A stretch of DNA of 61,868 nt, filler included, from Dugesia japonica (Eukaryota): NCBI GenBank assembly GCA_001938525.1. It is 6 parts of 6 records of this genome, joined end to end, with 100 filler letters (N's around TTAATTAATTAA, not from the genome) between each part and the next. Parts side by side here need not be neighbours in the genome. Positions count along the whole stretch, not along the records: positions 1 to 11,256 come from MQRL01497790.1; 5 more parts are not named here. One strand, given 5' to 3'. Below the pieces are notes generated by a model that was given only the letters and a program-made list of their open reading frames with translations, did not search any database and was not told the origin of the DNA. Numbering within the stretch: the stretch's first letter is position 1; every line of letters starts with the position of its first letter. The position numbers and the translations under genes were made by a program. This document shows, piece after piece, positions 2,791-40,244 of this stretch.

Positions 2791-3834
2791 AATCTTGAGG
2801 ACCCTGCAGCAACCCTTTGGAAGGTGGTATGTTTTTCGTTTTTGTAATTTCAGTTGCCCCTTGATGTTCTCTCTTCATTTTTTCTTGTCCAGATTCTTTC
2901 CGACTTCCCTGATCGAAGTTATCTGGATAAAACAGATTTTTAACTAATTTTGCTTCTTTTTTTATTTTAAAATTAATTAATTTTCTTTTGTTAATTAATT
3001 ATTTTCCATAACGTTTTTCTATGTTGTTTATTATTAAATTAATAATTGTTCTTAATTTCCAAAAGTAAGTTGCTTTTATTTTACTCGGTTCATCATATTC
3101 ACCTTTGGTTTTATTTCGTTTCCTTCTCCTGCTGCTTTCATTGCTTCATTTTCCATTATTATTGACTATAATGGTCCTGCCATTCTTGTTTGCTGATTTA
3201 TTTTTCAACCTTAATCTTGTTTAGCGGGTGTTTCACCCCAACAAATATACTGAATAGACTACTTCAAATTAAAGAAGTAATCCTGCTTATTTTCTTTTAA
3301 AATATTTATTGTGCACTGTTAGCAGCTGCTATGTTTTCTCCAGTTTGCATCTAAATATTTATCAATAAATTATATGTTATGAGTAAATCCAGTGAAAATT
3401 AATTCTACCACAAAATAGTAATATTAAAACATTTAATTGTCTTACTTATTTTCTTTTTTTATTTGAAATTTCTTCCATTATTAATACATTTAACTTTTAT
3501 GAAACTCTTTAAGAAATTTATAAAACTTTTCATAAAATTTTTATGTTGGATAATTAAACATCCTAACATGTTTTGGGATTCTACTTAAGTTATGAGCAGA
3601 AAAATTTTAAAAAATAGAAAAAAAACAGCCCTCAGGGGTACCCCTTGAAGAATTTACGCAAGTTCCCTTATTAGGTTCTCGGTGCGAAGCGGTTGACTTC
3701 CATCACATATTTGGAGTTCACACTTGCACACCTTTAGTTCGGGTTCAACATTTCCCATTTTAATAAAGGCTCTTGAAATATTAACCATAAATTAGCAAGA
3801 AAATTTCTTTTACACAAATATGCTTATGTTACAT

Positions 3835-4123
3835 TTAATTTAAAGCTTCAGGGTCAAGCCACTGGGTCGGCTCGTCATTTAAAAAGTCGATTGCGGCCTC
3901 ATCATCATTGTGGTTTCATCTTATCCACGTTTCCGTGATCTGTTTAACTTGCTTAGCTATTTCATCCTGTTTTTTATTGATCAGCTCTAACTTCTTGATT
4001 AACACTGTGTTAGATGTTGACACAGAGAGCGTTTGCAACGTTTAGAGTAATGTCTCTCGACTAGTAGTTTTTGTATTAGCTCATGGCAACATTCGAGGGA
4101 GTTTGGCAATCTGATTCGTGGCA
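3835..4123 (-). pseudogene. Cassette ORF4 copy B (premature stop)
   Basis: TTTTAG|TG CCA CGA ATC...; C-terminus AAIDFLNDEPTQWLDPEALN matches copies C and D. Confidence 0.65.
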
Positions 4124-4226
4124 CTAAAAATAAACATGATAAAAACGAGAACCCGTTACGCAAACAATATGTAGTTAATAACAAGAGTTTGATAATACAA
4201 TTTATTAAAGCAACCAAAAGGAGCAG

Positions 4227-4582
4227 TTAATTTTTTGTCTGAGTCGACTTATCAATCATCAGTAGCTCCAGAGAAATACGCTTACGCAGTTCTAATAATT
4301 AAGTCACCAGTTTATTCTCACAGTCATGGAGGGACCGGATAACGTTAGCAAAAGACTCAAGTTGGCGCTTCCAGATGCTCTCTTACGAATGGAATGCTTC
4401 TGCTTCTACTCTATGTTCTCGGCAACGAGCCTCGTAACGCCCTACTTTGGTCTGGGCGAAAACTACTTCGGCTTCCCATCGGCGTTTTGACAGTTTATAG
4501 ACATCCCAAAACATAGCGATGTTTTCGCTATCCTCTCGCACCTTTTTGGTGAGAGCAACGTAACTGTCTCGTGAATTGTTCA
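4227..4582 (-). pseudogene. Cassette ORF3 copy B (two in-frame stops)
   Basis: WDVYKLSKRRWEAEV...IRSLHDCENKLV...LMIDKSTQTKN, collinear with copy C. Confidence 0.7.
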
Positions 4583-4758
4583 CTAAAAGAAGCTACTAAT
4601 TAATGTTTGCTAGAATTCGCAACGCTAACAGTTTAATATTATTATTCCAAAACCCAACTTAAATGTTTAACGAAATACCAAACACCAAAACGTTGAAGTC
4701 AGATGATAAAAAAATTAACGTAAATACTATTTATTGTCAAGCAAATATTGATGCACGA

Positions 4759-5138
4759 TCAATTCTCGTAACCTCTAATGCTCCACATATAGTCGTTAAT
4801 AGTTTCTCTTATTTCCGAAGGAGTAGGAGAATGAGCGGAAGGATTATGGATTGAAGACGGCTCAACCTGCCAATCTCGTTTAGTATGCTGAAAACCATTC
4901 TCGCCCGTTGTAGTTGTCGTGGTAGCGAAATACGTCACGCGATTACAGTTAGGACCTGTACAATCATAAAAATCCTGCCGCTCAGTTGCGTCCCAATGTA
5001 CTTTGTTATTAGCGTCTTCAACAGATAAATTTCGATCGTTCTGCAAACACACTGGCATTTCTATTAAAAGATTAGTGTACCGTTTAAAAACCATCTGGTT
5101 AGTACGGCGATCCAAGATTAACTCCCATTTAAATTTCA
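4759..5138 (-). CDS. Cassette ORF2 copy B (divergent)
   Basis: Same position as other ORF2; shares W..I.DRRT, TGP..R and 'INDYMWSIR' similar to 'INNLLWGIR'; begins at acceptor TTCAG|TG. Confidence 0.6.
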
Positions 5139-5260
5139 CTGAATACAAGAGAAAAATTATTTTAGATAGAGGAAGTCAGTTAGAATTTCAAACAAAAATA
5201 TTAATTCAATAATTTTTTAATACAGATAATAATTTATTTATAAGCAATAACAAAGCATAG

Positions 5261-5446
5261 TTATAAGTATTGATCTAAATGGACTATAAGTTTTGACGGG
5301 AATATTTCTAAAAAACACTGCAGGTCCGTCTCATCCGGATGTTCAACTTTCCCTAACGACAATATATGGGCCAATAATTGCTTTCGACGTGCCTTCTGTC
5401 TTTCTTTGCGGATCTGTCGGACAGTTTCGTACAAAATTCTGGACAT
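5261..5446 (-). CDS. Cassette ORF1 copy B
   Basis: QLLAHILSLGKVEHPDETDLQCFLEIFP; acceptor TTTAG 4 nt before ATG. Confidence 0.7.
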   Translation of the reverse strand: MSRILYETVRQIRKERQKARRKQLLAHILSLGKVEHPDETDLQCFLEIFPSKLIVHLDQYL

Positions 5447-7860
5447 TTTCCTAAAGTAAGTTTATGAAAAATAAACATAATTGAAATATCATTTGATTTA
5501 TTTTCGGCCTATTTAAAACAAGAGTAAACGAAAATCGATATACCTCAGAATATTAATGAAACTCAAAAACACGAATACCCATCATTATGCAATAATAATA
5601 TTCCTAATGATAACCTTAATAAATTAATATTAATAATGATTAGGCCAGTAATAATATTTTTATCATTAATATTAACAATAATAGTCCTGATAATTGCATA
5701 AATAATAATCGTAAATAAATTATAATAATAATAATAGCAGAACTCGGAAAATTGTTAAAATTTAAAACTGATTAAAACAGAAAGTACTGTTTATTTGACT
5801 ATTAGTGATTGGCGCTATAATTGTAATACTGTCGAAGCGAATATTAGTCAAAACATCGAGACCAAAAGGTCGGTGTAGTGACATCATCGTTATTCAGCCA
5901 AGCGGTGACAAATTTGAGTCCCAGAACTGGATCAACCCAGGAGGTTAAACTATCTAGCAAAACTGATTATCAATGAAGAAAATACTGAATTTGTAAAAGT
6001 TTATAATTGTGCAAGTAAGGTGTTAGTCACCATAGAACTAAAAACCCAAAAAAAGTATTAATTTTAATAATCAATAATTAATTAGCAGTCAGTGTTCGTC
6101 TTAAAATCAACACTAAGGAAATGGTGGTGGAGTATAAAGATTTTACACACTCACTAAATTTTCTACAAATCAGAGTTATTACTATCAGCTACATCGGGAC
6201 ATTAATAACTCGATTAGTTGTAAGACAAACTGTTAATCTGATAATGGATGAGTAATAGGTGTGCGGTCTGCAGTGCAACATGTATACATAAAAAATCGTC
6301 TCCTACAGTTAGTTTGTAGGTTCTTATCAGTCATCGAAAATAGTGTGTAAATTGCTCATTTCCATCATGCCTCATGGTCTGGAATGCATAGCTCGTTTTC
6401 AATGCCATTTCCTAATGCCGATTGAAAATTAATTTTTTCTCATGGATTACAATATATTCAAAGGGAAAGGGTTACGAAGTTGACAAGAATTGAACGAAAA
6501 TTATTAGATCGGAGATAGTCACATTTCACTCTTACGGTAAATTTTTGTTAATTATCAAATAAAGTGTTATACTGCCATTTAGTGAAAGAGAGTACTATGA
6601 TAGTGAAGGAAGCAAATTCTAAACGTCTATCAACAAGGACTTATTAACATTCCACACGTATTCTCAATCGAAAACCTGGACAACTGGAAATTAATGAAGT
6701 AGTGGAATTTCTTAATGATTATGCTAATTTAATTGGATCTGGTTTACCAAACATGTGAATTGTTTCTATGAAATAAAATTTGTGTTCTTATACTACTCAT
6801 TATCATTTTTTACTGGCATGCAACAGATAATCATAGATAAGGTTTGAAAAAGTTTTTATTAAATATTAACACATTATATGGTTAAAATAACAACAAATAA
6901 CATTACTTTTCAAAATTAGGACGGTAAAAGTTGATCCAATTAATTCGTTTATCCAGAATTGCGCACTTCCAAAGAGATTTTCCACGTAATAACCGAGTTG
7001 TAGTATTAACAAATGTAGATTTTTTGGGGGTAAATCAACTGAAATCAGGGGGGTTTATACTTCCTCGTCGACACACCGAATTTTCTACCATTGACCGGTT
7101 ATTTTTATTTTTGGTTAACCGTTTCTGATTGGCAATAACTCCAAAATTTTCAGACTTTCTACGATTTTCTATCATTTTGTTGGTGCCTATTTTTAGAGCA
7201 CTTGCTGATTTTCAGGGCTTTGTTTTCCGTTTATCTTATGGCTTCTCATATGCCTGATCTTTAGACCCTTCTGATGATGGCAATGTTTTCTGTCACCAAA
7301 TTCAATTCCTCCACGTTATTATACCTCTAAACTTTCTTTCCTGGACTTCCTCATATTTTCCTGAGAGAAGATAATTTCCTTTAACTGATTTTCACACAAT
7401 TAAATTCCTTTTTTCAACAAAATTAATTAATTTCTTCCATTATTTTAATTATAATTTTAATAATAATTTTCTTGTGTTTTGATTATAAATTATAATTCTT
7501 GTAATTGGATTTGATTAATATTAATATTTTATTATTTCTGTTACTTCTTTATTCGTTCTGTATTTTCTTCTGGTCATCTGTTGATTATTTATTACAATTT
7601 ATTATCAAGATGACAATTATTATTGATTAATCTCCACGTTTCTTATTGCTTCTTTTTACTACTCAATGTTTGGGTCCCTAGTCATATTTCCTTCTTTGAT
7701 CAGGTGTTTCACCCCAACACATGCACTATTTTTATTAACTTCAAACTTTTACATCTGTTAAAGATACTTCTTTCCTTTTCCCACGAGAAATGCCGATTTT
7801 ATTGTAGCCTCACAGTAAATATGCAATAAAATTTAGCAACTTTTTTTCAACCACATTTGT

Positions 7861-8045
7861 TGGGGTTCCACCTGAGTCGGGTGGTAATAAAAATGAGGCT
7901 GGGGAAAAAACAGCCCTCAAGGGAACCCGTTCAAGAATTAAACCTACCGCCCCTAGGGTAGGTATTCAGTTTATGGTGGTTGACCTCTCCCTTAATGGGA
8001 GGTGCACACCCATAAACCTTTGTATTCGGGTTCAATAGTTTTCCC
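7861..8045. ncRNA. Conserved multi-stem structured terminal element (also ~3574-3756 and ~17375-17557)
   Basis: Stems GGGTTCC/GGAACCC, GGCTG/CAGCC, ACCTACC/GGTAGGT, GTTTATGG/CCATAAAC; stem sequences differ between copies but pairing is retained. Confidence 0.55.
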
Positions 8046-8102
8046 TTAACTTAAACAAAATTTTAAATCAAATAATTCTGGGAACATTTATTAATACAAC
8101 AT

Positions 8103-8500
8103 TTATAGCTCATTTAATACGCTAGGGTCTAGCCATTAATCTGGGTCGTCTATTGTAAAATTGAAGGCGGCGACATCGTCGTCATTGTTCCAATGAATCC
8201 AGGCTGGATTCCGAATCTGTCTGGAGAGGTCAGCTATGTACTGCTTTAAAAAGTCTATTTTTCGTAACAGTAACTGCCTGGTATCGGCCTCTAGGGCTTT
8301 GGTTTGGATTGCAAAGTCGTTTTGCTTACGGACTACCAAATCCAATTTTTTTATGAGTTGATTCCTTTGGTCAAGGTGCTTAAGGAAAGCTTGGTCTGCT
8401 TTGCGTTTTAAGTGTCGCTCTAATAACAGGTGGCGTAAGATGCGGTGGCGTAAGACGCGGTGGCACCTCCTCAAACTAGTAGGAAACGCGATTCGAGACA
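8103..8500 (-). CDS. Cassette ORF4 copy C, basic N-terminus, coiled coil, acidic tail (late premature stop at 8136)
   Basis: ORF track 8136-8501; reading through the TAA gives WLDPSVLNEL as in copy D (QWLDPGVPDEL); starts at TTTAG|TG. Confidence 0.7.
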
Positions 8501-8619
8501 CTAAAGAAAAAGTATAATTAAATTAATGAGTACCTAAGCTACGACGCGGGAAAACAAATAACAGAGAAATTTCATACAATTAAATATTTTATCGTTTCAA
8601 TCAATAATGCAACATCAAG

Positions 8620-8979
8620 CTATGAGAGGCTCGTCTGAGTACTTTTGTCGATCATTAGCGGTTCGAGGGGGATTTTCTCCCGGAGAATCAAAATGTCGTT
8701 AACCAGTTTATTTTCTCGGTCATGGCTGGACCGGATAATCTCTGAAAAAGATTCCACTTGTTTTTTCCAAGTGCGCTCCTGTAAATGGGAGGCCTCCGCT
8801 TCCTTTCTAAAAAGAACACATTTTTTCTTATAACGGAGGACTTTACTATTCGCAGTGGCCACTTCTGCCTCCCAACGTCGTTTGGCGAGTCGGTAGAGGT
8901 CCCACATCATTTCGCGGGCCTCGCTAGTGTCTCGGATTTTCTTGGTTGGAGCTGGGGGGGCGATTTAACGATGAATGCA
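8620..8979 (-). CDS. Cassette ORF3 copy C, coiled coil with C-terminal DKSTQT
   Basis: ORF track 8620-8910; 5' part from acceptor TTTAG|TG at 8979 has a +1 shift in a C7 run. Confidence 0.7.
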
Positions 8980-9182
8980 CTAAACGAAAATATCATAAGA
9001 ATTATTTCTCTTCATCGACTTGCTGATTAATCCTCTTATATTTGTTCAACTCTACTCAAAGCATGAAAACACAGAATAACAATATTAAAGGTAATCTTCC
9101 CAAGGGGCTAAAGAGTATATTAACACTACTTAAGACACTTATTTATTCAAAGAAACACAAATTTTATGATTATGAATAACAT

Positions 9183-9528
9183 CAAGAGTCGGGAGTGGTA
9201 GTATCAGGGGAACTGTATTTTCCACATCCGCCACCCCGGACGGTTCCCTAACACCCCAGAGCATATTAGCTATAAAGGCTTGAACTACTGGTGGAGGAGC
9301 TGGAGGTTGGTACCGGAATGGAGTGGCGTGGCTACACTCAGGACCATTTCACTGGCGATAGTTTAGTCGCTCTCCAAAGCCCTGAATACGAGCAACAGCT
9401 GCTTCGACGGGAGGTAGATTTGATCGGTCTACCAGGATCCCGGCATCTCGAGTGTAGGGATTGTGGTGCCGTCGGAAAATTATTCGACGGGTTCGCCTAT
9501 CCATGACTCGCTCCCATATTGATTCCAT
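9183..9528 (-). pseudogene. Cassette ORF2 copy C (internal frameshift)
   Basis: MESIWERVMDRRTRR..., downstream LWGVREPSGVADVEN is in another frame. Confidence 0.65.
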
Positions 9529-9667
9529 TTCTAAGAATGACGAAATATTAGTAAACTCAATTAACACATTATACAATTACAATAAACACTTAAATGTATG
9601 ATTAACACGCTACGCGGAATTTTATTCAAAAGATCATTTTAACAGATAACTATCACCGAAGTAAATG

Positions 9668-9850
9668 TCATCCCTCATCCCGATCTACGTTCCTTTCCAA
9701 GGGGAATATCTCGGTGAGACAGCACAGGTCTGTCTCGTCTGGGTGTTCAATTGTTCCCTTTGTGAGAAAGTGGGCTAGTAACTGTTTGAACCGGCTAGTC
9801 TGGCGTTGCTTTTTTATCCAACCCAATGCCTGATCTAATTCTGTTGGCAT
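9668..9850 (-). CDS. Cassette ORF1 copy C
   Basis: QLLAHFLTKGTIEHPDETDLCCLTEIFP. Confidence 0.7.
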   Translation of the reverse strand: MPTELDQALGWIKKQRQTSRFKQLLAHFLTKGTIEHPDETDLCCLTEIFPLERNVDRDEG

Positions 9851-11300
9851 GAGCTAAAGAAGAAAATGGTTAACTGTTGTTTTTTCCTTTTGACTTAATT
9901 CCCCGGATCAACTTATTGTAGCAACTTGTTATTTGATGGGGGTCATATCATGGAAGGGTAGAAATTAAAGGAGGATCGTTACCTAGGATCATCGCAACCT
10001 GGTTATGAGGGTAATGTTAATTCTAGCATAAAATGATAGTTAATATCACCGCAAAAGTACGTAACAAAATAATTTTCTTTTCATAATAATATTCGTGATA
10101 AAGATACCTGTTATGGCCCATGGAAGCACGACCATATCGTTGCATCTGATAGTATCACCAATCCTTATTCGGAATGGTAACCAGCCCAATTTTTAATTCA
10201 ATTCTCCGATTACTCTAACAAGTTGACGTCTATTCCCCCCAAAACGCTATTATTACTATTAATGGCCAAATTCCTGTAACACTGGTTATTATAAACGTTA
10301 TAACATTAATTTTCATCAATAAAAGCAACAATAATGATAATATAAGCACAAAAAGGAAAATTAAGATTATTTTCTAGTTTTTCTAATTTTGAATTTCTGC
10401 CTGTTATAGTTGCCTAGTGATATTGTTTAAACGGGGTATATTGGTCTCACTCGTGTGAGTGTGTGCTTGCCAGTTTAATTTCGTATATGTGTGTATAGGC
10501 AGGTAATCTAACTAAAGTAGATAATATCAACTAGTTACATCACTACTAATGATAGGAATCTCGACTGATCAAACTTAGTGATGTTGGGGGATTTTCGCAT
10601 GTCAAAAAACAAAATTTCTTTATAATGTACATACTCAACGAGAAAATTTTTTTCACTCCTATAGAGTCGGGTCACAAAAATTTGGCTGCCACTAAAGATC
10701 ATGGAGATTTTAATAGATCAGAGCGTATTAAGGTTATTTTTGGAAGTTATTTGATTGCCATCTCTCCATGATTTCGTTGGAATCAACTGCAGTGAGTTGT
10801 AATTTATTAATTTTCTTAAATAAATAGTTGGAAATGGTTTTCTTAATTGATTATTTTATTATTATACTTCAGTCTAGGCGTGAATCGTAAAATTATGGAA
10901 AGAGATTAAACCCAGTTTAAATTCTGGAATCTAGCTGTTAGGGTGTGATTAATCCAGCAACATACATTTTAGAATTACCATATTTACGTATATCATATTA
11001 TTTGTGGATATAAAAAGAAAAGCGATTACTTTCTTAATAATCAATAATTTCAAGGGATTCTTAGTTTGAACGGGATTAATGTCACGATGATTCATGATTT
11101 ATTAGTTATCGTTAAGAAATAATAATGTACGTTTTTATAGCATGAACAAATTTTATTAAGATAAATGATATTCATCGTTAAAAATTATACCACTTTTACA
11201 CAATTAAAATAATAATTTACTTTTTAATATTCCTGTAAAATTTTCTGCAACAGGTTNNNNNNNNNNNNNNNNNNNNNNNNNNNNNNNNNNNNNNNNNNNN

Positions 11301-11312: not shown

Positions 11313-11389
11313 NNNNNNNNNNNNNNNNNNNNNNNNNNNNNNNNNNNNNNNNNNNNTATATATATATAAAGCTGTATAATACGAGAAAT

Positions 11390-13400
11390 ACATGTCACAT
11401 TTAAATTATTATGAAGCTGATATACCAATGAATTTAAAAGATATCCCGAAATTTGAAAAAGAAAATTATAGATTATCAATAAATGTCTTATTTTGGAACC
11501 CGCATTGAGGACGATGATGTGGTCATGACACACTATAATCTTGTCATAATACATCGATCGAAAGCTGTTTACAGCGAGAAGATTAATTTATTACGGTTGA
11601 AGGATAATGATGATTTCCATTACACAGCACTATTGAATTTAAACCATGTAATAAATAGAGATCGAACGAATTGTGTAAGAATACAAACATTACGATGTCT
11701 AAATTGTCTGAATGGATTTCACTTGAAGGACAAATTTGTAAAACAGAAGCTAATTTGTGGTTGAATTCAAACGGGCACTACACACTGTATTATGCCGACT
11801 GAAACCAANTTAAAATTCCAAGATTTCAACAAGGCAGTTACTCTCCTTTTTGTATTATATGCTGATTTTGAATTAGTTTTATCTCTCAGATGAAAAATAT
11901 TTCCAGAAATATCTACATGTTTCGGCTGGTCGGTTGTAGGTAAATAATTTTACTAATAAAGTGAAATACAGCAAGTACTTTGGAAATGACTGCTATTTTG
12001 AGCTTTTAAAGTCAGTTAAAGAATAAAATAATAATTTACTAATCCCTATTACAAAAAACATGGTAATAAGCAAATTATAATGTCCCCTCACATGATTGTT
12101 TAGACCAGCCCGAAATTGTTATTTATTTAAACATAAGCTCATAAACCCAGTTCGAGATCACAACCATTTTACAGGAAAGTATAAAGTAGCTGCGTGTAAT
12201 TTTTGTAATTTATCAAGAAGAGTTCATATGCAACTACCGGTTGCGTTTTCTAATTTGAGAGTGGATGATGAGTATATTTATATTTATATTTTATTGCTAC
12301 ATACTCGAATATGGACTCAGCAGATTCCAAAATGAAATATTAGTTGTATTTCTATGACTTTTGAAAAAGTCCTATGTTTAATAGTGCACCAAAAAAAATC
12401 ATCTACTATTAAATTTATTGAGAGTTATCAGTTTATTTTACAGTAAAAGAAGTTCAAGACGGTAGGATAACGATATCAAAGGGAATATTTCCTTATAATT
12501 ACGCAACTAGTTTGCAAGTTTTGGTTGAAATAGTTGACATGCCACAAAAGTTGGAGGAAGTAAATGAAGAAGATTAAAAAAAGGTGATCAAGATGTGGAT
12601 GCTGGCAAGTTGTTATATGTTAGTTTATTTGAAGTTGGATCTGCTTTTGTTAGCGGATTTTTTTCAATAGTTAAGAATTAAATCATTAAATTTAGAGTCT
12701 TTCAATTTTTTCGGAATACCATGGATGAGTTTGGCATCATCATTGATGTCATTAGATGAGCAAATTGAACTGTTGAAAGATAATGACATGTACACATGTT
12801 TTAAAGGTGGAATAAGAAGCGGGCTTACATTCATCAATTAACACCATGTGGCATCTAATGACAATACTGATTTATTGTATATAGATAATCACAATCTATA
12901 TGGTTGGTCATTAAGTCAGAAATTTCTCTATGCAGATTGTGAGTTGGTCTATAATTTATTGGAAACAACGCTGGAAGAATGTAAGACAGGTGACCTCAAC
13001 TTGTTACCAAATTAATACTCATTGGTGGTAGACATGGTTATTTTGGAGGAAATTTACGATTGCCTAAACGATTTCCCAGTAGCAGTGAAACATCATAGTT
13101 CATCAGGATCAAAAATTGATAAATTGTTGTTAACACATTACTCAAAAAATAACTATATTATTTATCGGAGGCTGTTGTAAATGTATATTCAGTTGGGTGA
13201 ACAGATGATAAAAATGCACAGAGGAGTTCAGTTTAGAGAAGGAAATATGTTTAAAAAGTATATAGATATTTATACATAATGGATGTCAAAAGCAAAATCG
13301 TAATTGGAGAAAAATTATTATATATTATTCATTAATAGCTTAAAAGGAAAATCTGTGGAAAATTTGAAGAAAAGAATTAATGTGCGCTTGTGCATTATAA
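11390..13400 (+). pseudogene. Polinton/Maverick protein-primed DNA polymerase B relic
   Basis: YADFE, PVRDHNHFTGKYKVAACNFCNL, GGIRSGLTF, LLYIDNHNLYGW, NSLxGKSVEN; many stops and frameshifts; homologous to 28400-30350. Confidence 0.85.
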
Positions 13401-13709: not shown

Positions 13710-16500
13710 TTAACTGGCGACCACGGCAACAACGAAAATTAATTTTAGAAGCCTTGTCTAAGAAGAATTTGGAACTTATTAATTTTAATATTAAAAAATA
13801 TGATTGTAATGATTCTTCATAAGCCTCAGCATGGCTGAAAGAAATCAACGAATAGCTCATTGTGAATGATTTACGCTTGATGGGAATTATCGATGAAGAT
13901 ATTTACGCAATACGGAGAAAGAGTTATTCAAACGTGTTAAAAGGAGACTGAAGTAGTAATGAGAGACGGCCTCAAAACCAGCCGTCAATTAATTTTAAAA
14001 CCAATAATAATGTAAGATATGAAAAACCAAGAACAGAAATTTCAACGTATCAGAGAAAGTTCAACGAAAGGATGTCACAACCGGTAATTACAGAGAACAG
14101 AACGTATGGTTTAAGTAGGAAACTGGCAGTTTCAAGATGTCTTTTTAACAGATATAGAGGATTACCTGAACTACAAGAAGAACGATTACGGGAAGGACAA
14201 TGTTATTGTAGCAGAGAACATGAACACATGCGTTATCAATGTCTAATAAAATATAATTGTTTGATATACGGGAAAGCTGGACACAATTTCCGGCAATACT
14301 ATCTTGTGAAAGTTTGATCTAATAAGGGAAATATTAAAATTCTATGCATCCAGAGGAACAAGAGGTACAAATTGACAAAGATGAAATCTTTGAAATGCAT
14401 GATATTATCAAAGAAAAAAACCAGAACAACTCCGTTGCATACATTTTGTCAGTGGAGTTAACTTAAGAAGAGATAACTTGAATCGAAATAATCAAGACAG
14501 AAGATAGATGTATGAAAAAGAAGACGGAAGAGCGTGAAGAAGAGTAGACATGAATGGAGTAAAATTGGAAATGTTGTGGGATTCGGGAACATTGATTACA
14601 ATTATGAGCGAAGAGTACTGGTTGAAGGTAGGAAAACCAATCTTGTTATGTTGCAATGTCATGTTAAATGGGGTATTTTTGAGCAGTGAAGAGAGGCCGT
14701 TATGATTTGTTGAAGTGAGCGTTAAATGGAATAATACAGTGAGAGTTATTAAAATCATAATTTTTAAAAAGACGATCAAAGTTTATGGATGGCATAGATG
14801 CAGTGAAAATTTTCGGAATAAAACTGACAGAAGTTAATAACATTGAAACAGAATGTTTTGGAAGAAACCACTCAAACGATGATAGAAAGAATTACGCATT
14901 AAATGTCTTCTAAAAAACAAATAACAAAGATCTAAATTATCTAATTTTGAAGTTTGTTGAAATATTCATGGCGATTAATTTTGATATAAAACATACAAAA
15001 CAAATAATATACGAAAAATAAGTATTTGGAGATCCAATTGTTCAACATCCCCGGAGACAACCGATGCACTTGAAAAAGAATATTGACGAAATGATACTGC
15101 GTTTAATAAGTATTGGGATAATTAGCATATGTAAAAGTTGGAAATGGAAAAAAAGATGGGTTGGTAAGAATGTGTGTCGATTATTGACAACTGAATATGA
15201 TCACTGAAAAGTTTCATTTCCGATGCCAGACATCCAGTTATTATTGGCTTGCTTAGCAGGTGCAAAAATACTTTGTTCAATTGATCTAGGACAAGCTTTC
15301 TATCAAGTAGAACTATCAGAAAGCTTGAGAGATGTTGCGGTGTTTAGTACAAAAGAGGGTCAATTTAGGCTCAATTGGATTCTATTTGGGTTAGCAACGG
15401 CAACGTTTCAAAAGTTGATGCATGATTTGATGGCAGGAGTGATTTTTAAAGGTCTCATCGTATATCTAGATGATATATTAGAGTTTGAAAGAACGGTCGA
15501 AGATCATAATGATATTTTGAAAGAATTTTTCAACAAAATAAGAGAATCAGGATTGAGAATAAATCCAGAAAAATGTAACTTTTACCAAAAACAACTGGAC
15601 CTTTTGGGACACACAATAAGTACATGAGTAAAAACAAACGAAACTAAGATTTAGGAAATAAAAAATGCCGAAGAACCAAAATGTTCATCTAAACTCAGAT
15701 CTTTTTGCTTAACGAATTACTACAGGCGTTTTATCAAGGATTACGCTAGAATTGCAAGACCTTTGAAGCTATTTTAAAATGGGAAAAAAGTTTGATGTGG
15801 ACAGAAGCATGCAGAAAACGTTTTGAATGACAAGTTATGTAATGCACCAATCTTAGATTACCCAAGAGAAAATAGAATGTTTATCCTAGATACTGATGTA
15901 AGTTTCGGAGCTATCGGTGCAGTGTTGAGCCAAAGAACAGAAGATAGTGAAGAGGTGGTGATAGCTTATGAATCCAGGAACTTTACTGCTTATGAAAAGG
16001 GATACTGCGTTACAAGAAAAGAATTGCTGGCATTACATGAATATGTGGTACATTTCAAGCAATATCTATATGGAAAGAAATTCTTAGCAAGAAAAGATCA
16101 CAAAGCACTGATATTTATGAATAACAAAAAAACCGATAAGCCCACGATTTCAGACGTGGATAGCAAATCTGGGAGAATATGATTTTGAGTTAAAATATTG
16201 AAAGGGGTTAAAACGCAACAATGCTGATGGATTATCACGAATAAATGAGAGTTTATGCTCACAATACTAAACAGTACATTTGGATTCCATGGAAGAAAAA
16301 TCAAGAGTAAAATATATTAACAACAGAATGAAAACATTATAAAAAAAATTCGGAATGCACAGAAAGATGATTCAATAATACAAAGAATAAATGAAATAAT
16401 TCAAAACGAAGTACGGCTAGTAGAAAAGATCATTCAGGGAAATTATGTGGATCAACTTGATCGCGAATTGAAAATTGATTATGGATTGACGAAATAAAAT
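13710..16500 (+). mobile_element. Decayed Ty3/Gypsy LTR retrotransposon (PBS, gag, PR, RT, RNase H)
   Basis: PBS-like TGGCGACC at ~13715; LWDSGT protease; IDLGQAFYQV and YLDDIL RT (15223-15627); FILDTDVS and KELLAL RNase H (15823-16182). Confidence 0.9.
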
Positions 16501-17371: not shown

Positions 17372-17614
17372 TGTTGGGGTTTCACCTGAGTTGGATGGTA
17401 AGTAAATTATGGCTGTTTTTAAAACAGCCCTCAGGGAAACTCTTTCAAGAATTTACCCTGACGTTCTTGGGTCAGGTATTCAGCATATGATGGTTGATCT
17501 CTCTCTTAATGGGAGGTGCATGCCCATAAGCCTTTTATTCGGGTTCACTATTTTCCTTTAACTTACACAAAAGATTTAAACCAATGATACTCGAGACATT
17601 TATTAAAATGACAT

Positions 17615-19197: not shown

Positions 19198-21420
19198 AAA
19201 CTAAAGGATTAAACTGTCAATGCTAGTAATTAAATTCAGGGTTGAACCAAAACAAAATTTCTTGTTACCGCACGAGGACATTTACCATAATAACAAGTTT
19301 AATAATCCCGGGATAATGTTGGTGATGATCATAATAATAAAATTAATAATAGTTGTAGTACGTATATTAATAACCAACAGTTCTAATATATAAGAATAAC
19401 AGTCTTAGAACGTATAATAATAGCCACTGGCACCACCAGTAATGACAGAATCCTTTACTAAAATGATTAAGATAACATCCGGCAAGAACTACACTAATGC
19501 AAGCCATATTAATAGTAATTGTAGTAAGGATAGTAGTATTACTGATAACTGTAACCATGATAACAATACTAATAATCATAGTGCCAATAGCAGCAATAAT
19601 AGTAATCACACCATCAATACCAATAACAATTATCACCATCATGTCAGTAACACTAATATCATGAATACCAATAATGATGATGCTAATAACGGCAGTAATA
19701 ATAATATTAATAATACTAATAATAACAATATTAATAATAGTAGTGATAATATTAATATTAATAATAATAACGATAATAGTGACAACAACATTTATGATGT
19801 TAAGGATACTATATTAGTATAATCAATTTTAGATTATCTTTTGCTCAAATTTGTTAAAATTGGGAGTTGCGCTGAATTTNGTATTTTCCCTCGTAACAAT
19901 AAAATAATATGTTTTTTGTAAACTTTAATGATTTGACCGAAGTTCGCAAATTAATTAATTGTGGGAAGTGGTTGCTTAACAGCCAAAAAATTTGTAATGG
20001 CTAGTATTACACATTATAGTTAAAGGATAGTATGTGTGTATGCAAAAAGGCATTATTGTACATCGATCGATTCACCCTGGTTACTATGGTGAAATTAACC
20101 ACGACGGCAACTTAAGTCACTATAATGAGTAACTAGTTGCTTATTTTTATAGGGAATTTGGGGGTAATTACTCACGCTCATAGCTGGATTAACTCCAACT
20201 AACTCGTTTAATTTGTAGATCCTGTGGTGGGCATATAATTCTTAGATAAACCTATTTGACACAAAAAAATTTAAAATAAAACTCATTTCACTGTAAATAA
20301 AAGGTTTTTTTTTTAATTAATAATTAGAGCTAAAATTCCATTCAATTTATTTTAATTTATTATAACATAACAGAACACTTCCTATCAAGTTTTTGATAAG
20401 ATTTCCGCAACGGGGAATAACAGACGAATGAACTATTTTTCCTTCTTTTAATTGATAACGAAAGTCACAACTTTTGCTGTTTTAGGACAATTGAAAATCA
20501 GCAAGGTTTAATGAATAAAATTACTTTGATGCGCGATAACTGATCACGTCGATTTCTGTTTGTTGATATCGTAACAAAATTCTGCTGAGGGTTTTTCTTT
20601 TGTGAATTACCGAATTGTATATTAGTTTTACGAGAGATTTAGTAGTGTTTTTGTGATGATCTTCTGCTTATTTCATGTTTCCTTAATATATGACTTTTCT
20701 TCGCACCCCAACTTTGTTCATATTTGTTGGTTATTTATAACCGGAATTTTCGGCTTCCTATTGGTTCTAGTGCCAATTTACTAAATTTTTTAGAGTTTTA
20801 GAGTTCAATTGGCGGTTATTTTTAAAACTTCATGTAATCGATTGTGCTTTATCTTTTTTTTATTTTCAGGTTCCTTATTGGCCCAATCTTGAAATTCCTG
20901 CAGCAACCCTCTGGATGGTGGTAAGATTTTCTTCTTAACAAATGTTTCTTACTATTTTCTTTTTGGATTTTCTTACCCGAACTCTTTCTGATTTTCCCAA
21001 GCGAAGTTATTATTTAGATTTAATTTCCATTCAAATTTAATTAATAATTCATCCTTAATTAATTCTTCTTTAAATTTGCTTCTCCTTGTATTTAATATTA
21101 TTTAATATTCTATTCTAATTATTGATTCGATGCAGGTTACATTTGTCCATTAAAGATCTTTTTCCCTTCTATTTCGGTAGATGTTCATTTTTAGTTCTAT
21201 TGTCGGTTGCCCTGAGGTTTTATATTACTTCTTCCAACGCTATTTGTTTGCAATGAGTNNNNNNNNNNNNNNNNNNNNNNNNNNNNNNNNNNNNNNNNNN
21301 NNNNNNNNNNNNNNNNNNNNNNNNNNNNNNNNNNNNNNNNNNNNNNNNNNNNNNNNNNNNNNNNNNNNNNNNNNNNNNNNNNNNNNNNNNNNNNNNNNNN
21401 NNNNNNNNNNNNNNNNNNNN

Positions 21421-26420: not shown

Positions 26421-27194
26421 ATATTTATTTGTTTTTGTTGAAATCTTTGTTATTTATTAAAACTTAGAATAAAAATAGTAAAATAACAACATTTATTTAT
26501 AAAATATTTGTAAGTAATATGCTAATAACACATGTTTTTTATTATTTTGACACGTTTTATTATCAAAAAGAAATTAATTTAAAATACTGCAACGTAATAT
26601 ATCTGCAATATTTTAAATTAATTTGACATTTTTCAAATACACATATACTTCAATTTGATTTGTTAGATTTGAAAACCTTGAAAAAAGTTATTATTATTAT
26701 TCATCACAATTTTAAATTATATTTGCAAAACCAGTGAACAAATTCAAGAGAGCTTAAAATAATTTATTATTATTATTAACATTATTAACTTTTATTTTTA
26801 GAATTATCATGATTTCGTATAAACAAAATGGAAGAAGATTTATTTCAACTATGAATGCTGTAAGATTGTTATAATTTAGTATTAATAAATTAAATATGTA
26901 ATTGAGAATTTTAGCGAAATGAGACTTTAAGGTGAAGGATCTCGGAAGATTGTGAATGGAGATTCACGTAAGTTTTTTTTATTATGTTTTTTTAAAATAT
27001 TTTTTATAAGTTAAATTTTATTAAAATTTTAAAAACTATTATGAAAACAAATATCTTATGTCGCGTTCTATAATATGTTTCATGATATGTTCTGTGATAT
27101 GATATTATGAAGAAATTCTCTATGTTTTTCTAATGAAAAGGTTCTATGTTTTTTTATCATTTTTCTTCTTTTCATCGCTAATATGTTTTACTTT

Positions 27195-27400
27195 GAAAAA
27201 TTGTAATGCTAATGAGATTTTTTATTAAAAATTGCATCACTAATGAGATGTTTTATTTTAAATTACATCCCTGATGAGATTTTATATTAAAACTTGATTC
27301 ACTAATGTGATGTTCTATTAAAAATGGCATCACTGATGAGATTTTCCATTAAAAATTGCATCACTAACATGATTTTGTATTGAAAATTATCACTCTTATG
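27195..27400. repeat. ~33-bp minisatellite, about 6 units
   Basis: Units like AAAAATTGCATCACTAATGAGATTTTTTATT. Confidence 0.75.
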
Positions 27401-27599
27401 TTTTTTAATGTAAAATATCATAGCTAATATATTTTATAAAGAAATAAAATGTTGTTAAAATCATTATGCTATTATTAAAATTATTATATTATTATTAAAT
27501 TATTAAATTATTTTAGAACATTGCAAATTATTAAATTATTTTAGAATATTGCAAATTATACAACCATTGCGCAAGTGCAAGTCATGGAAGAATAGTATC

Positions 27600-30350
27600 A
27601 TGGAAAGATACTATGGCCACTGGTTTTATTGAAAAAATTATTTTGTGTGTCCTAATTGTAAGGTATTAGATTTATGTGACTACTTAAGTTTTTATAGGAC
27701 ACATAAGAAACACTTGTCATGTTTTAGTAAAAGTAAAAAAATTATATTAAATCAATATTAGATAGGCATATTGATAGTGAATTTTATAAAGAATCATTAA
27801 ATAAGAAAATTCAGATAGGAGAAATAACAGTTAAGGATGAGCCAATTGAAATAATTGTTATTGAAGATGATGTTAAAGAAATAATATTCAAGGATGAGCC
27901 TCTTGAAATAATTGAATATATTGAGAAAATCATTAATTTTGAACCGGAAGAAGAAGAAACTACAAATATTGTACAAGATGCAATAAATATTGAATCAGAT
28001 TATTGGAACAGTTTTGAAATTATTGATGAGCTCAATGAAGAAGATATTGTGTTTCATGAGTTCATGGATGCAGAAGAAGCAGAAAATAATCAAGTTGGTG
28101 GATCAGCAAATATAACTGTGGATGATGGAGTTAATATAGAATCGGATTTGTATCGTTGTCATAGGATTCTTAAAATAGAGGTTTCAAGATGGAATTGTCG
28201 TGAAATAATGTTACCAGAAGCAATAGTCACCAAATTATTTCAGGCAATAGAAGCAATGAAGCAAGTTAAAATTCAAGTTGAGGTACATGTTGAGTTCAAA
28301 AGGATAACAAAAACTGCTGATGGAGAAGAAGAAGAATTTAAAACCTCTAGGATATCAGTAGATAGGATAGGATAGAGCCTTTGCATTAACTGATAACTAT
28401 TTTGAAGATGGGATCAACCAAATGAATGAAAAAAATAACAATAAGAAGCAAACTAGGCTCGAGTTAGATGTTAAACAGAATACTGGAAATTAATTTCAAA
28501 ATTACAAAGGTTGCAAATATTTGTCGACTTTTTGGAAAAGTTATATTCCAACACTGAAACATTTAAAAATTAAAAGGACAATTGTAAACATCAAGAACGA
28601 TGATAATTACGGTTTTATTTACAGTATTCTTGCTATAACTAAAATAGATCAAGTTGGAGAAAATAATAGTAATNNNNNNNNNNNNNNNNNNNNNNNNNNN
28701 NNNNNNNNNNNNNNNNNNNNNNNGGAGAAAATAATAGTAATCGCGTAACATTATATAAAAAATAGAAGACGGAACTTGTATTTGATGAAGAAGATTTGTA
28801 GATGAAACTGAAGGATCTACCAAAGTTCGAGAAGAATAATCCTGGACTATCTATCAATGTTCTATCGTGGAATCAAGAATCAGTGGAGAATGAAGAAGAT
28901 GATATAGTAATGAAACATCAAAATTTGGATATAATAAATCGTTCAAAAGTGGTAGATGGAGAGAAAATATATCTGTTATTACTGGAAAATATCAACAGAT
29001 TTCATTAAACCACAGTAATGTATCTAAATCGCCTATTGACCAGAGATAATAAAAACCAAGATGTTCAAATTCAATAAACATGAGAAACATGAACCAATTT
29101 GCGAAAAAATGCAGACAGGTACTACCATGTATACGATGCAAACAGAGAATAACTTGATTTTTAAGGATTTTTCAAAAACTATAACAACACCTTTTGTTAT
29201 ATAAGCGGACTTTGAGTCAGTTTTATTTCCAGGCGAGAAGCATTTCCAGAAACATTAACTCGGTTTTGCTGGTCTGTTGTTGGTAAATAATTTTACGAAT
29301 GAATCAACATACAGAAAATTTATTGGATATGACTGTGTGTATACGTTTTTAAAGGATGTGGAGGAAATAAGCGAAAACATTGTGTTTCCTTATTATCAAA
29401 CAAAATGAAAAAAGAATGAATTATAATAACAATAGATCAAGATAAAGAATTCAAAGCTGCAAAAATTTCTTACTTATGCAAGAAGGAAATAAGAGATCCT
29501 GTTCGTGACCATGACAATAACCATCTTCATCATATCTTCAAGTATGGTATTAACAAGTCCACGAATTGGGAAATATCATACATCCCAACAACCTGAGAAA
29601 AGTTTCTATGTACGGCAAAATAAAACAAAAATTAAATTCATCGACAGCTATCAGTTCATAAATTTCTCATTGGACTCTGTCAAATCCTTAAAAGCGACAC
29701 CATTGACTACAGAGGAGTTAAAGAATCAGATTATTACCAAGTCAAAGAGGATATTTCCGTACAGTTTTGCAACGAACTTACAGGTTTTGGAAGAAACGAA
29801 GGAAATTCCGCCAAAATGGGAAATGTTAGTAAGAAAGAAAATGAGAAAGTGGGAAATATTCAACTGTACAAATTTGCTGGACTATATGATGTTATATTTA
29901 AAACTGGATGTGTATTTATTAGCTGATATTTTCTAGCAATTCTGTGCAAATTCTTTAGCACACAAGAAATTTGAAAACATTGAATTTCTTTGTAATACCT
30001 AGAATTTCATGGGCATCTGCCTTGATGTCATTGGAAAAACCAATTGAGTTGCTCCAAGATAACGATATGTATACCTTTTTCGAAGGAGGTATAAGAGGAG
30101 GGTTAACATTTGTTAATGAACACCATGTTGCCACTAGTGATAATGTTGACCTTTTGTATATAGATATTCATAATCTATATGGTTGGGCACTTTGCACTTT
30201 GCAAATTTTGAATGGATCTTTAATAAACTAGATGGCGTTTTGGACGAGTGAAAGAATCCAGATCTAGACTTATTACCATATGGAAACACTCTAGAAGTGG
30301 ACCTGGTGATTTCTGCAGATATTCATGATTATTTCAATGATTTACCGTGT
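27600..30350 (+). pseudogene. Polinton pPolB with N-terminal extension, 3' truncated
   Basis: VNIKNDDNYGFIYS, ADFES, FIDSYQF, LKLDVYLLADIF, FEGGIRGG, LLYIDIHNLYGWA. Confidence 0.9.
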
Positions 30351-31224
30351 CCACACGACACTGTCTTTGCTTACCAAATGCAATCAATAGTGCTTGCATT
30401 TTAACATTTGTTCTGTTTATATTAATTATTTCTGGACTCTGATATTGTAAGTCCATGTTCAATTTATTAGTAATGTTAACTTTTTCTTCCTTATAACTCC
30501 TTAATAGCTGTTTTTGGCGCATCAAGTTCAAAAAACCTAACCAAGTTTTTTATCAAAAATGACATGTTTAGGATCGAATGAACTTTAGGATCGAATTGAA
30601 GTTTTTTAATGCTTTCTTCTTTTTTTAATACCTAATTAAATAATAATAACTATTGTATTATTATTAATAATGATATGACCACCAAACAATCAAGAAATTG
30701 AATTTCTATTTAAACATGAAGACCTTTTTGTAGTCTCTTCTCCAACTTATAGCTATACAACAAAATGCCGTTGTTGGATATTTCTGTCATAAAGGGCTCC
30801 AAATTGTATTCTCCTTTTATTCTCTCTGCTTTTTTCACTATATGCCTATTTAAATTGTCCATATAGTTCAGTGTAAAGGTTTGATTGACGATTTATAATA
30901 CTTTGTATCCTGCATTTGGTAGAGAATCTTCATTATCTTATTTGCATATATCTATCTGCTGGAGCATTTCATATTGCTTGTATGATAAATTTCGAATATC
31001 TACCATTTTGAAAATAATGAAATATTTAAAAGAATTTCTATTTATATACATGATGTTTAATATATATATGATGTTTAATTTTATTGGTTGTGGAAGGGAT
31101 AGAAAGCAACCAGGAACCAATAGAAATTCATATAAAGAAAGAACTAATTAGTGAAGAAGAAAAGAAAAATTGTTGTTGTAATAAATGTTTCTTATTGTAA
31201 AAGGTTTTTTATTAATGAATGCAG

Positions 31225-31545
31225 TATGTATGCAATAATTATGCCACACTATAGCAACACATATACACTGAAAATCATGTGACTGGGAATTTTATTGATT
31301 TTTTAAATAAATTCATAATAAATGCAACTCAGATGCAACACACATACAATGAAAATAACGTGACTGGGAATTTTTATTAAAAAATGAAATAGGTATGCAC
31401 CTCAGATGCAAAACACATACACTGAAAATCACGTGCCTGGGAATTTTTTATTAATGAAAGCAATATGTATGCAATAGATATGCAACACAGATGCAACTCA
31501 TATGCAACACACATACATTGAAAATCACGTGACTATGAATTTTAG
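31225..31545. repeat. ~70-90 bp tandem repeat, 4 units
   Basis: ATGCAACACACATACACTGAAAATCACGTGACTGGGAATTTT variants. Confidence 0.75.
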
Positions 31546-34549: not shown

Positions 34550-37500
34550 TTAAGGTAATCACGCTTATAAACCAGGGGGTAGGTCCGAATTCGTGCAAAG
34601 GGCATAAACGATACTTTGTGAGCTCAAGCGATATCAGTACAACAAAGATCATTACCACTGGAACAGAAATTAAGCAGTGATTACATAGGAAAAAAGAAGG
34701 TAATCATTACCAGGAGAACAGAGTTTGGTACTATCGTAAGGCGCAAGCGATACCAGTACAATAACCTTAAGAATAAAAATTAATAAAAGGTTTGGTCTTT
34801 GGCTTGTATTTGTATGTTAGATTTTATTTGTGGAAGTTTCTAGCTTGTTGCCAAAAAATATTAGCGTGGGCGCCATCGCACATTTGCTGTATATTAAAAT
34901 TTGACAATAATAAACTTTTAAATTGGAATATTATACATAATGCTGATATTTGATATTTTTTGCTTTGAATATAAATTTTTAAATTTGTTTAAAAAAAGCA
35001 AATTAGTAGTTTTTTGTGAATAAATTTTCTATTGAATTGAGCTTTGATATAAATGATCCTATTATTACTTCAAACTCATCTAACAGTTTGAATTTTCGTT
35101 ATTTTTATTTTCAAATTATTCATTAGAAAACAATTTATTTTTATATCTCAAGCTGTTCATTAACACCGATGCGATCACAGAGAGATTCTTGCCAAAAGTA
35201 TTTTGCAATGGCGATGATCTAGAGAAATATAATGTGAAATAAAGTTTGAATAGAAGAATATCGTTATTAAGAAAGACCAGAAACTCTTAATAACATGTTT
35301 GTTGGATGACGTTTTGATGGAAGCATATATGAAAACATTGAAGAAAGCTGACGTATATCGATAGAGATTGCAATAAGCTTCTGGGATAAAAAAATTTGTA
35401 ATAACAGATTTACGGTAGCGAAGAACTTGAGGTGTTCTTTAAAAAAAGTTGACAATTTAGTCGATAGATTTTTAGCAACTGAAGAGCTGACGAAAGAAAT
35501 ATTCTTGTCTGAAATGCTAATAATTTGTTGAGATAGTAGAAGAGATAATCATGCAAAAATTGAGAAAGTAGAAGATATAAAAGAAACACTATCATTAGTT
35601 AAAAATAATAGAAAGAAAAGAACCTATTAATGTAGTAAAGAGTTACGCGGGTGTAAGACGTAGAAAACATACCGGAGACAGGAGATAAAATATCGAGAGA
35701 GTTATAAAAATAACAGAATCACAATGTTGGACATGCCAGAGTTATAGGCTCAAAACAAAATAGTGTCCAGAAAATTCAGAAGTGGCATGTTGGACTAGTC
35801 ACAAGACAGCATTTAAATAGAAATTGTCCAAACAAGAATCCACCAAAATTCTTTGGATGTAGTACCAATGGTGACATCAGAAGGATAGTTTAATAGATTT
35901 AGGAGCAAGAATAAATGTAATGAGCATGAAAACATTTAGTAGACTTGGAAAAAAAATGTTAGAGAAAAGCGAGAAACAATTTTATTTCATGAATAACAGC
36001 ACATTGGATACAATTGGAAAGATACGTGTGGAAGTTGTAGTTTCAGAAATGTGCAAGGAAGTAACATTTGTAATATAAATAAACTACCACCACATCTAAT
36101 TGGTGAATTTGAAGTTCAAAATATTTTTGGGTATCATCTTCAAAAAACATCAATAATCAACGAGATAAATTTGTTTGCAACAATGAGGAAAAGTTTGGAA
36201 GGCAAATAAAAACAAGCAAACAGTTGAGATATGCAAAAGAGATTCTAGAAATTAACAAAGATAATAAATTGACTGCGATTTTTCAGAATAATAAGGATGT
36301 AATTATGATGGATATATGGAACATTGGATTCACACATTCTTAACAAAGCAGCGAATAATCACGAAGGGATATTCAATCAACATAAAACCGTATCTTCAGC
36401 TAATAAATCTAGAAAGAAAGATTGAAGAGCCCATCAAGAATTTGTATTATAATGGTGTAATTATTAAGTGTAATTTTCAATGGAATACGCCATTATTCTG
36501 CGTTTGAAAAAAAGAAAAAACGTATTTACGATTATGCTAAACTTTAGAAGAGATCAATGCAATAACAGAAATACAAGCTTTTCCTATGCAGAATGTGGAC
36601 GAAATGCTTGATGCTTTAAAAGGTGCACAGTATTTTAGCTCAATAGACATGATAAATGCATACTATTGTTGAGATACCCTGGGGGATTTGGCCAAGATAA
36701 ATCAACAATACGTGAGTTTAAATATTAATCAAAACAATCCAAATATATTATGATCTATATTGAATTCTATTTACCTTAATATGCTTAATATAGATACAAT
36801 GATATTAATTATATATAAAGTATATAGTGTTCCTTGATAAAAAAGACTTTACAAATAAATAATAGTGATTCCTACAGTTAATAAATTTTTCCTTTAGTTG
36901 TATATCTCAGAAGATATAAACTGTTGAACAGGATTAGATTGGTAGTGAAAATGAAAAATAGTCCACTATTTATACTAGTGGCTTAACTTATCATGCATAT
37001 AACTTATAAAATTTTCCATAATAATTACAAATTTACATTAAAAATTTACCGATTATCATAATTCCATTAAAATTAATAAAAATTTTTCCATATTAATATT
37101 AATAATAAAGTTCAGATTTTGTAAATCAATTTCAATTATTAATAATAAAGTTCACGAAAATCAATTCCAGTTATTTACAATATTATAAAAAATAAAAATA
37201 AAAATACAAAAAAATAAAATTGTTCAAATCACAAATAAAAATATTGAATTGTTAATAATAAATATTCAAATTAATTGTTAACATTGGAAATTGATCAGAT
37301 TAATCACAAATATTCAAATTGATAAATGATCTTGAACAGTTGTTATCTGTTGATCTTGAGTTAGGTGGCTGAGGTACTGGTTGTTCCGATTATGTTTCGT
37401 ATTATGTTTAGTATATGTGTATGTGAGTTGTTTGTTGTGTATGCACGTGAGTGCTTATTTTCCTTTTGTTTTTGATTTTCCCCAACACTATCAAGTAGAA

Positions 37501-38100
37501 CTCAGTGAAGATTCTCAAACAAGAATCGACTAAACAAGGGCAATTTTGTTTCAATAGAATGGTTTTTGGAATTGCGGCAGCATCAGGCACATTTCAAGAA
37601 ATTATGAATAAAGTAATCATGAAAATAAATGTGGCAATGGTTTATCTAGATAATATTCTCCTGTTTACATCAAACAAATGAGTAACACTATGAAGTAATC
37701 AATAAAGTATTGACAGAAGTTAAGAGTGTCTGTCTTAAAGTCAATCCGGAGAAATGTCAATTCATGCGAAAAGAGATCAAATTTCTGCGACACATTATCA
37801 GTAAAGAAGGTGTCAAAACAGATCCAACTAAAATAAAAGCAATTAAGAACTTTAGTAAACCAAAATGCGTAAAGAAATTTTACTACTTTTGTATTCATTT
37901 CAAACATTACTTATATAGTAATAGATTTATCCTCAAAACAGACCATTAGACTTTTATGCTAAATACCAAAAAACGATCACACCACAGTTTTAAATTTAGA
38001 TTAATTATTTGAGCAGTTTAAATATAAAAATTGAATATATAGAAGGATCGCTTCATGCAAACCAGAGCATAGAAAAAATAGATTGAGATTCAGAAAATCA
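34550..38100 (+). mobile_element. Decayed Ty3/Gypsy element interrupted by a solo LTR
   Basis: LTR-like 34550-34865 then TGGGCGCC; CCHC-like knuckles ~35720-35830; LIDLGA protease; RT NAYY|QVELSEDS, YLDNIL, NPEKCQF. Confidence 0.8.
36667..37487. mobile_element. Solo LTR, 821 bp, TSD CTAT
   Basis: TGTTG...CAACA ends; CTAT at 36663-36666 and 37488-37491; removing it restores the RT motif. Confidence 0.9.
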
Positions 38101-40200: not shown

Positions 40201-40244
40201 GAACTATATGAAAACACCTCACTGAAAAATTATTAATTCATAAA

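Follow-up and report, generated by a model that had tools for sequence, protein, structure and literature searches.

A conserved structured element at an LTR-like terminus of a planarian repeat and its possible role in tRNA-primed reverse transcription

Work on primer-activation switches has centred on vertebrate retroviruses and on yeast and fly elements. In HIV-1, the primer activation signal (PAS) lies in U5, pairs with tRNA positions 48–55 and is masked by intramolecular pairing, as described in the available excerpts of PMC1865047 and PMC3675109. Similarly, excerpts of PMC5371799 and PMC1635307 report for three retrotransposons, Ty1, Ty3 and Drosophila Gypsy, that the element RNA contacts the T arm of the tRNA by base pairing at sites other than the primer binding site (PBS). 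Structured RNA within an LTR, associated with small spliced accessory genes, is instead exemplified by the HTLV-1 RxRE and the HERV-K RcRE (excerpts of PMC3694450 and PMC11379458). In planarians, the giant gypsy-like Burro/GYPSM1 elements are present in thousands of copies and are longer than 30 kb, of which the internal region takes up to 25 kb, thus leaving room for multi-kb LTRs; the available portions of their descriptions (PMC6431247, PMC11410931) mention neither LTR genes nor an LTR RNA structure. All six Schmidtea errantiviruses in the table of PMC13524379, in the part available, are without LTR and PBS entries.

The planarian segment described here would resemble the HIV-1 U5/PBS region in having a structured putative U5 beside the presumed primer site and a short block, a candidate partner of the T arm, that is predicted in one copy to be masked by intramolecular pairing. 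On the contrary, its position, tRNA and function are those that we infer, the block lies about 170 nt from the LTR end, and no sequence similarity with HIV-1 is claimed. Differently from RxRE and RcRE, the LTR itself carries the genes and the structure occupies its extreme end, with a protein partner that is only hypothetical. The likeness to Burro/GYPSM1, i.e., thousands of copies and room for multi-kb LTRs, is a comparison by description and not by LTR sequence. No account of this structure turned up in a literature search; the 2018 paper on the planarian genome and its supplements, which lay outside the reach of that search, may describe these LTRs.

The window, i.e., the whole stretch analysed (61,868 nt from Dugesia japonica), is AT-rich animal DNA with gaps. 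Its self-comparison identified a repeat unit of ~4.15 kb, bounded by TG...CA and present in four diverged copies, having 58–66% mutual identity over long stretches by self-BLAST:

Window start to 3243: copy A, with its right end at 3243.
3569–7719, minus strand: copy B, the sole copy with both ends.
7711–7719, minus strand: the other terminus of copy B, a 9-bp inverted repeat of the structured end as found in C and D.
7858–11256, minus strand: copy C, defined by self-BLAST, termini and flanks, and cut by the gap at 11257.
17372 to the gap at 21259, minus strand: copy D, adjoining an AAT microsatellite.

Copies C and D start with TGTTGGGG, of which the B start is a variant, and the right ends of A and B finish in CCCCAACA. 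TG...CA ends and a short inverted repeat, as in copy B (3569 and 7719), are features of the LTRs of Ty3/gypsy-type retrotransposons. In two whole-genome runs, 2,213 and 2,330 variant contigs lie on 231 bases around the structured segment, and 45 and 46 contigs, respectively, pass at 7858 into unlike AT-rich flanks. These unlike flanks, together with the matching termini, confirm 7858 as the end of the element, where a previous sequence-only reading had correctly placed the segment. Summed contig depth does not equal copy number. The repeat is very abundant in the genome of an animal, a planarian. The same variants were found under a second organism label, and one contig links a unit end to a unit start via 18 AT-rich letters.

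Neither PBS, polypurine tract (PPT) nor gag-pol was found in the three left and two right flanks of the copies in the window, as expected for solo LTRs, and none of the three left flanks has a convincing PBS. For none of the copies in the window was a link with gag-pol or with a primer site seen. The flanks of B, an old copy in AT-rich DNA, differ and show no 4–6 bp target duplication, while A, C and D are each without one end. The simplest reading of the unit, and the probable one for copy C, is a solo LTR; the unit is likely the LTR of a retrotransposon with minus as its sense strand. A TGG is present at 7851–7853, 4 nt past the terminal CA of C on the minus strand, with no matching tRNA end in the one table searched; the same 4-nt spacing is reported for the PBS of the cestode ta-TRIM in the available part of PMC4558846. 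Past the right end of A, the flank 3244–3270 resembles the loose-end letters of five reads of run X12 at 7719, perhaps owing to a shared target.

The structured segment and its parts, with positions of helices given in copy C, are as follows:

7858–8046, minus strand: structured terminal segment of copy C, putatively the last ~190 nt of U5.
17372–17558, minus strand: structured end of copy D.
3569–3757, minus strand: structured end of copy B, more diverged.
7862–7929: helix P1 (7862–7876 with 7916–7929, one bulge), including the terminal bases; double change between C and D at 7868/7923.
7897–7915: hairpin P2, 5 bp, within the P1 loop; 7877–7896 is length-variable in the family.
7935–7967: hairpin P3, with two double changes between C and D; both sides of 7947/7958 vary in the family.
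7969–8017: P4, a long hairpin with interruptions, in which family members vary on both sides of the pairs 7970/8016, 7977/8008 and 7987/7999.
8021–8026, minus strand: hexamer like a poly(A) signal, flanked by P4 and the invariant block, which reads AATACA in C, AATAAA in D and, shifted on by one base, ACTAAA in B, and which may be due to chance.
8025–8046, minus strand: conserved upstream block, GAACCCG and GGGAAA with a variable spacer; alternative partner of 7919–7929 and candidate partner of the tRNA T arm.

In the fold model, the terminal helix P1 encloses a variable loop and hairpin P2, and is followed by P3, P4 and the conserved block, where the invariant TTCGGGTTCA is found at 8025 (C), 17538 (D) and 3738 (B). 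The motifs on which the sequence-only reading had based its pairing stems were all retrieved in place, in C (7942/7957, 7969/8010, 7863/7922), in D (17457/17471, 17376/17436) and in B (3681/3723). The C segment folds beyond chance on both strands (z −2.80 on plus, −2.56 on minus), with single-copy values of −1.98 for D and −0.88 for B. Folding of the alignment gave a structure conservation of 0.80 (C+D) and 0.78 (C+D+B), more than in any other of the 10 segments compared along the unit, and z scores of −6.4 and −8.5 against column shuffles, a lenient null. In second place, 9378–9568 on the plus strand, opposite to ORF X1, has a good fold for C and D, with a conservation of 0.69 and z −5.6, and a weaker one when B is added (z −2.5 in three copies). 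Identity between C and D is 75–85% in the structured segment versus 33–77% elsewhere, and the unpaired blocks are likewise conserved in the family. The long stem of B requires a bulge, and several common family variants break the outer part of P4. A covariance model of the structured end did not detect a fourth copy of that end in the window. A conserved structured element is thus present at the LTR-like terminus, and its stems, by motif positions, fold z scores and structure conservation, are real and keep pairing while their sequence changes, as previously proposed.

Evidence of covariation was weaker than that of the fold. Both sides change in 9 of the 56 modelled pairs, a count matched by 2 of 500 shuffles with a model fitted to these same sequences. 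When the structure was derived from one copy alone, double changes gave p 0.004–0.06 for C versus D on the plus strand and p 0.07–0.54 with B included. In the family data, both partners vary at four pairs, counted among 21 variable paired positions, and all four are complementary (2.3 expected by chance, p 0.16); variant shares match for 7987/7999 in all four runs and for 7947/7958 in two of four. These figures are from 40 of the 57 variant rows; by the counts per kind, the remainder could add for run X7 no more than a single A>C, a single G>A and a single T>C, and variants near 8014–8016 were perhaps under-counted through alignment clipping. The p values are not significant with B or family-wide. 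The fold is thus well supported and its covariation only moderately; the covarying stems of the sequence-only reading hold for C versus D and weaken with B and across the family.

A switch had also been proposed in copy C, and there the alternative pairing is indeed predicted: the middle strand prefers the upstream block with a probability of 0.86–0.99 (0.91 on the minus strand) and P1 is near zero. On the contrary, P1 is favoured by 5 kcal/mol in D, where the probability of the other pairing is 0, as in B, which forms neither of the two; the alternative helix retains only 5 of 7 pairs in D and B. The C letter at 7920, within the competing helix, is present in about 1–3% of family depth, so C overstates the switch. 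Since none of the listed variants (40 of 57 rows) falls in 7863–7869, 7923–7928 or 8028–8033, both pairings remain possible in most copies. The sole double change from C to D in this region follows the terminal helix P1 and not the alternative helix, for which no separate covariation is seen among C, D and B. A switch between P1 and the upstream-block pairing is possible; the alternative dominates in C only. In D, changes in the middle strand are matched by changes in the terminal one, with the upstream block kept fixed. This fixity, as its internal partner changes in D and B, suggests that the upstream block may have an external partner; its complement is also present inside the element.

The unit carries four small open reading frames (ORFs) and polymerase II-type motifs on the minus strand:

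7054–7132, minus strand: TATA-like (7054–7059) and CCAAT (7128–7132) module near the other end of B.
8087–8092, minus strand: AATAAA that follows the last small gene and, in the minus sense, shortly precedes the structure.
8139–8522, minus strand: small ORF V, 128 aa stop to stop, with an acceptor at about 8501.
8623–8964, minus strand: small ORF W, 114 aa stop to stop.
9142–9528, minus strand: small ORF X1, in two pieces in C and open in A and D.
9671–9850, minus strand: small ORF X2, ~60 aa, helical, without known family.

An acceptor-like AG precedes 12 of the 14 small-ORF copies and an A(A/T)TAAA lies near the end of 10 of them, always on the minus strand. CCAAT is found about 70 nt before the TATA-like box on the minus strand of all three right ends (A, 2587–2667; B; D, 20683–20764), whose plus strand shows no common TATA match; an internal polymerase II promoter, another LTR feature, is thus seen at motif level only. 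As regards the fold, one-sided family variants in well-supported helices give G-U pairs on minus in five cases and on plus in one (p 0.11), the tally becoming five versus five when five variants in doubtful helices are added. The changes of D itself favour plus (five G-U versus one) and its fold is better on plus (−55 versus −41). Raw reads numbered 3, 59 and 3 in three poly(A)/cDNA runs sampled in part, numbers too low to decide the strand; run X8 may be DNA. On the functional strand, left uncertain in the sequence-only reading, minus is probably the sense; this lean comes from promoter and splice-site polarity and not from the fold. With minus as sense, the structure would be the U5 end, 40 nt beyond the last poly(A) signal (8087–8092).

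None of the four small ORFs matched a Pfam family, and homolog searches with X1 and X2 found no relative. A profile search gave two matches, namely a plausible 94-aa relative on a lone 512-bp contig and a spurious repeat protein, which was discarded; none of the 166 pattern matches of a protein-led locus search was confirmed. The structure model of X2 (pLDDT 64) had only weak helix-turn-helix-type matches (Z at most 4.0), that of X1 was unusable (pLDDT 39), and Atlas matches (RHS repeat, low recognition) were treated as noise. The small ORFs carry moderate basic stretches, with 5–7 R/K per 12 residues. The ORF in the X1 slot of copy B (4762–5175, minus strand) bears an insertion and is far more diverged, at 30% identity. 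Inside ORF W, a short stretch with a small inverted repeat (8702–8742) coincides with one of the two coverage peaks of run X8, the other being the structured segment, and is the best covered part in run X12; it is possibly a second conserved RNA or DNA motif.

Searches for known RNA classes did not return a family. Infernal against Rfam gave no match at the gathering score and three at E 0.27–7.9, all far below the cut-off, and resemblances to Dicistrovirus IRES, RNase P/MRP, 5S, SRP and group II domain V were unsupported by Rfam. Core motifs of hammerhead, HDV and twister were absent, as were the other core motifs considered except for one edge 6-mer; a ribozyme of a known kind is thus unsupported. 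The hairpin-loop palindromes of C, D and B differ in place and sequence and none is common to the three, so that a kissing-loop dimerisation signal was set aside. A type 2 polymerase III gene likewise found no support, since neither an A nor a B box occurs on either strand in the three copies, where a T run is present, and ARAGORN predicted no gene. A pattern scan retrieved no match in viral contigs and four in metagenome contigs, all attributable to chance and without BLAST or covariance-model support.

Among the packaging, priming and dimerisation roles originally listed for a signal near the LTR end, dimerisation thus lost ground and priming/packaging now leads. We tentatively propose, at somewhat less than an even chance, that the 190-base segment acts as a gate, controlling both the packaging of full-length RNA and its reverse transcription from a tRNA primer, a reading favoured by the fixed upstream block, its T-arm complementarity and the precedents of HIV-1 PAS, Ty3 and Gypsy. 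Transcription would start about 650 nt into the LTR and the small-gene mRNAs would end before the structure, so that only read-through genomic RNA would carry it; in a 5' LTR, the structure would abut the primer binding site. On the minus strand, P1 covers the bases directly before the terminal CA, which would be the first template bases for reverse transcriptase, and would hide them. The middle strand might leave its terminal partner and pair with the invariant upstream block instead; when free, this block would pair with the T arm of the primer tRNA as the HIV-1 signal does. The segment would therefore work like known U5 signals if our reading holds, and is a candidate PAS. Against this reading, the R-U5 region would be very long, ~3.4 kb.

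With 15 bacterial tRNAs used post hoc as proxies, the upstream block was the best 24-nt window for tRNA positions 48–58 in all three copies (C, D and B), and the best site in C for 8 of the 15 distinct E. coli tRNAs. Using the whole arm (positions 48–65), the block ranked top only in B, and the top window was on the plus strand in C and D. The block is complementary to GGTTC, present in the T arm of 12 of the 15 E. coli tRNAs. In an extended form of the proposal, which we regard as rather unlikely, a gene-carrying giant LTR would contain a tRNA-mimic switch: an internal strand copying the T-arm sequence would alternately hide the first template bases or fill the invariant two-part site, which otherwise would clamp the primer T arm on both sides of its loop. 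As only read-through RNA would bear it, the choice between small-gene mRNA and genomic RNA would be coupled to priming. If the priming role is true, a conserved version of primer activation in a very high-copy animal family would provide thousands of natural variants for a covariation map, on an RNA short enough for easy probing. The orientation and anatomy of the multi-kb LTRs of planarians, left unannotated in the available part of a recent survey (PMC13524379), would be settled as well.

Other explanations could account for part of these data. The structure might mark unspliced RNA as a Rex/Rec-type response element, bound by a small LTR-encoded protein for nuclear export. Small spliced genes indeed adjoin the structure, which lies beyond their poly(A) signals, and their products carry the basic stretches mentioned above (5–7 R/K in 12 residues). 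As reported in the available excerpts, RcRE and RxRE lie in LTRs (PMC11379458, PMC3694450) and an invertebrate LTR retrotransposon exports its RNA via a spliced accessory protein (PMC10309623). We consider this unlikely, as no small ORF matches a known family, the X2 matches are weak (Z at most 4.0), the basic stretches are only moderate, and the inclusion of the terminal bases in a helix is left unexplained. A quite unlikely reading takes the plus strand as sense, so that the structure would be the U3 start just past the polypurine tract, a transport or 3' element, with the small genes antisense. Against it, the promoter module is on minus in all three copies with no conserved promoter on plus, and no PBS-like sequence occurs past either right end examined. 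Folding is slightly stronger on plus and D has its G-U changes there; transport elements near the PPT and 3' LTR are described in excerpts of PMC11379458 and, for MusD, of PMC3362945, and the 59 X12 reads over the right end are mostly in one direction, in a library whose strandedness is not known. A possible 7-bp loop-tail pseudoknot in C, in which a common variant is G-U on plus, is 57% paired over the three copies and holds only in C.

That the genomic RNA ends here, with P4 and P3 looped out to bring a weak hexamer near the cleavage site and U-rich elements, appears improbable to us. A hexamer variant does stand directly before P4 on the minus strand in all three copies, an ATTAAA-type form occurs in loose ends, U runs are downstream on minus, and the HTLV-1 R structure is a precedent (available part of PMC3694450). 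Nevertheless, the canonical AATAAA is in D only, variants of the hexamer are likely given the A-rich context, and AT-rich DNA often contains such hexamers by chance; the R region would measure about 3.3 kb, and no pile-up of RNA ends was observed at a very low depth. Slightly more improbable is the lack of any RNA function, the segment being either a structure at the DNA level, at the end of a TGT...ACA element of the Ginger-like kind, or a set of inverted repeats whose complementarity is maintained by template switching. With it agree the TGT...ACA ends, the absence of a visible internal region, the weak covariation and the nearly equal folding of both strands; against it, the inverted repeat is just 9 bp, the helices retain bulges and wobbles in place of perfect symmetry, and the unpaired blocks are conserved too. 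A self-cleaving ribozyme of a new kind, or a separate RNA made by polymerase III, would fit the compact multi-helix fold with invariant joining segments and the T run found at the same place on minus in all three copies. It is very improbable considering that no Rfam match, known core motif, A box or B box was found, that the letters after a B-box-like start vary, and that cleavage beside the primer site would destroy the template.

Besides the repeat, the window contains a Wnt-family exon:

46980–47342, minus strand: Wnt-family exon (Pfam E 1.5e-9).

Decayed fragments of gypsy-type RT/RNase H occur at 13950–16300 (plus strand), 36541–37946 and 40236–41272, the first and the last being 81% identical and inverted; the first lies near repeat copies, and no link with this repeat family is claimed. 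Two decayed related fragments (11380–13010 and 28800–30230), 72–75% identical and with a weak DNA polymerase B match, are probably Polinton-like. An open frame of 1,425 codons (55480–59757, minus strand), without Pfam match, may resemble a large lipid-transfer protein. Finally, tandem arrays are present at 27144–27415 and 31205–31544, with units of 31 and about 73–96 bp, respectively.
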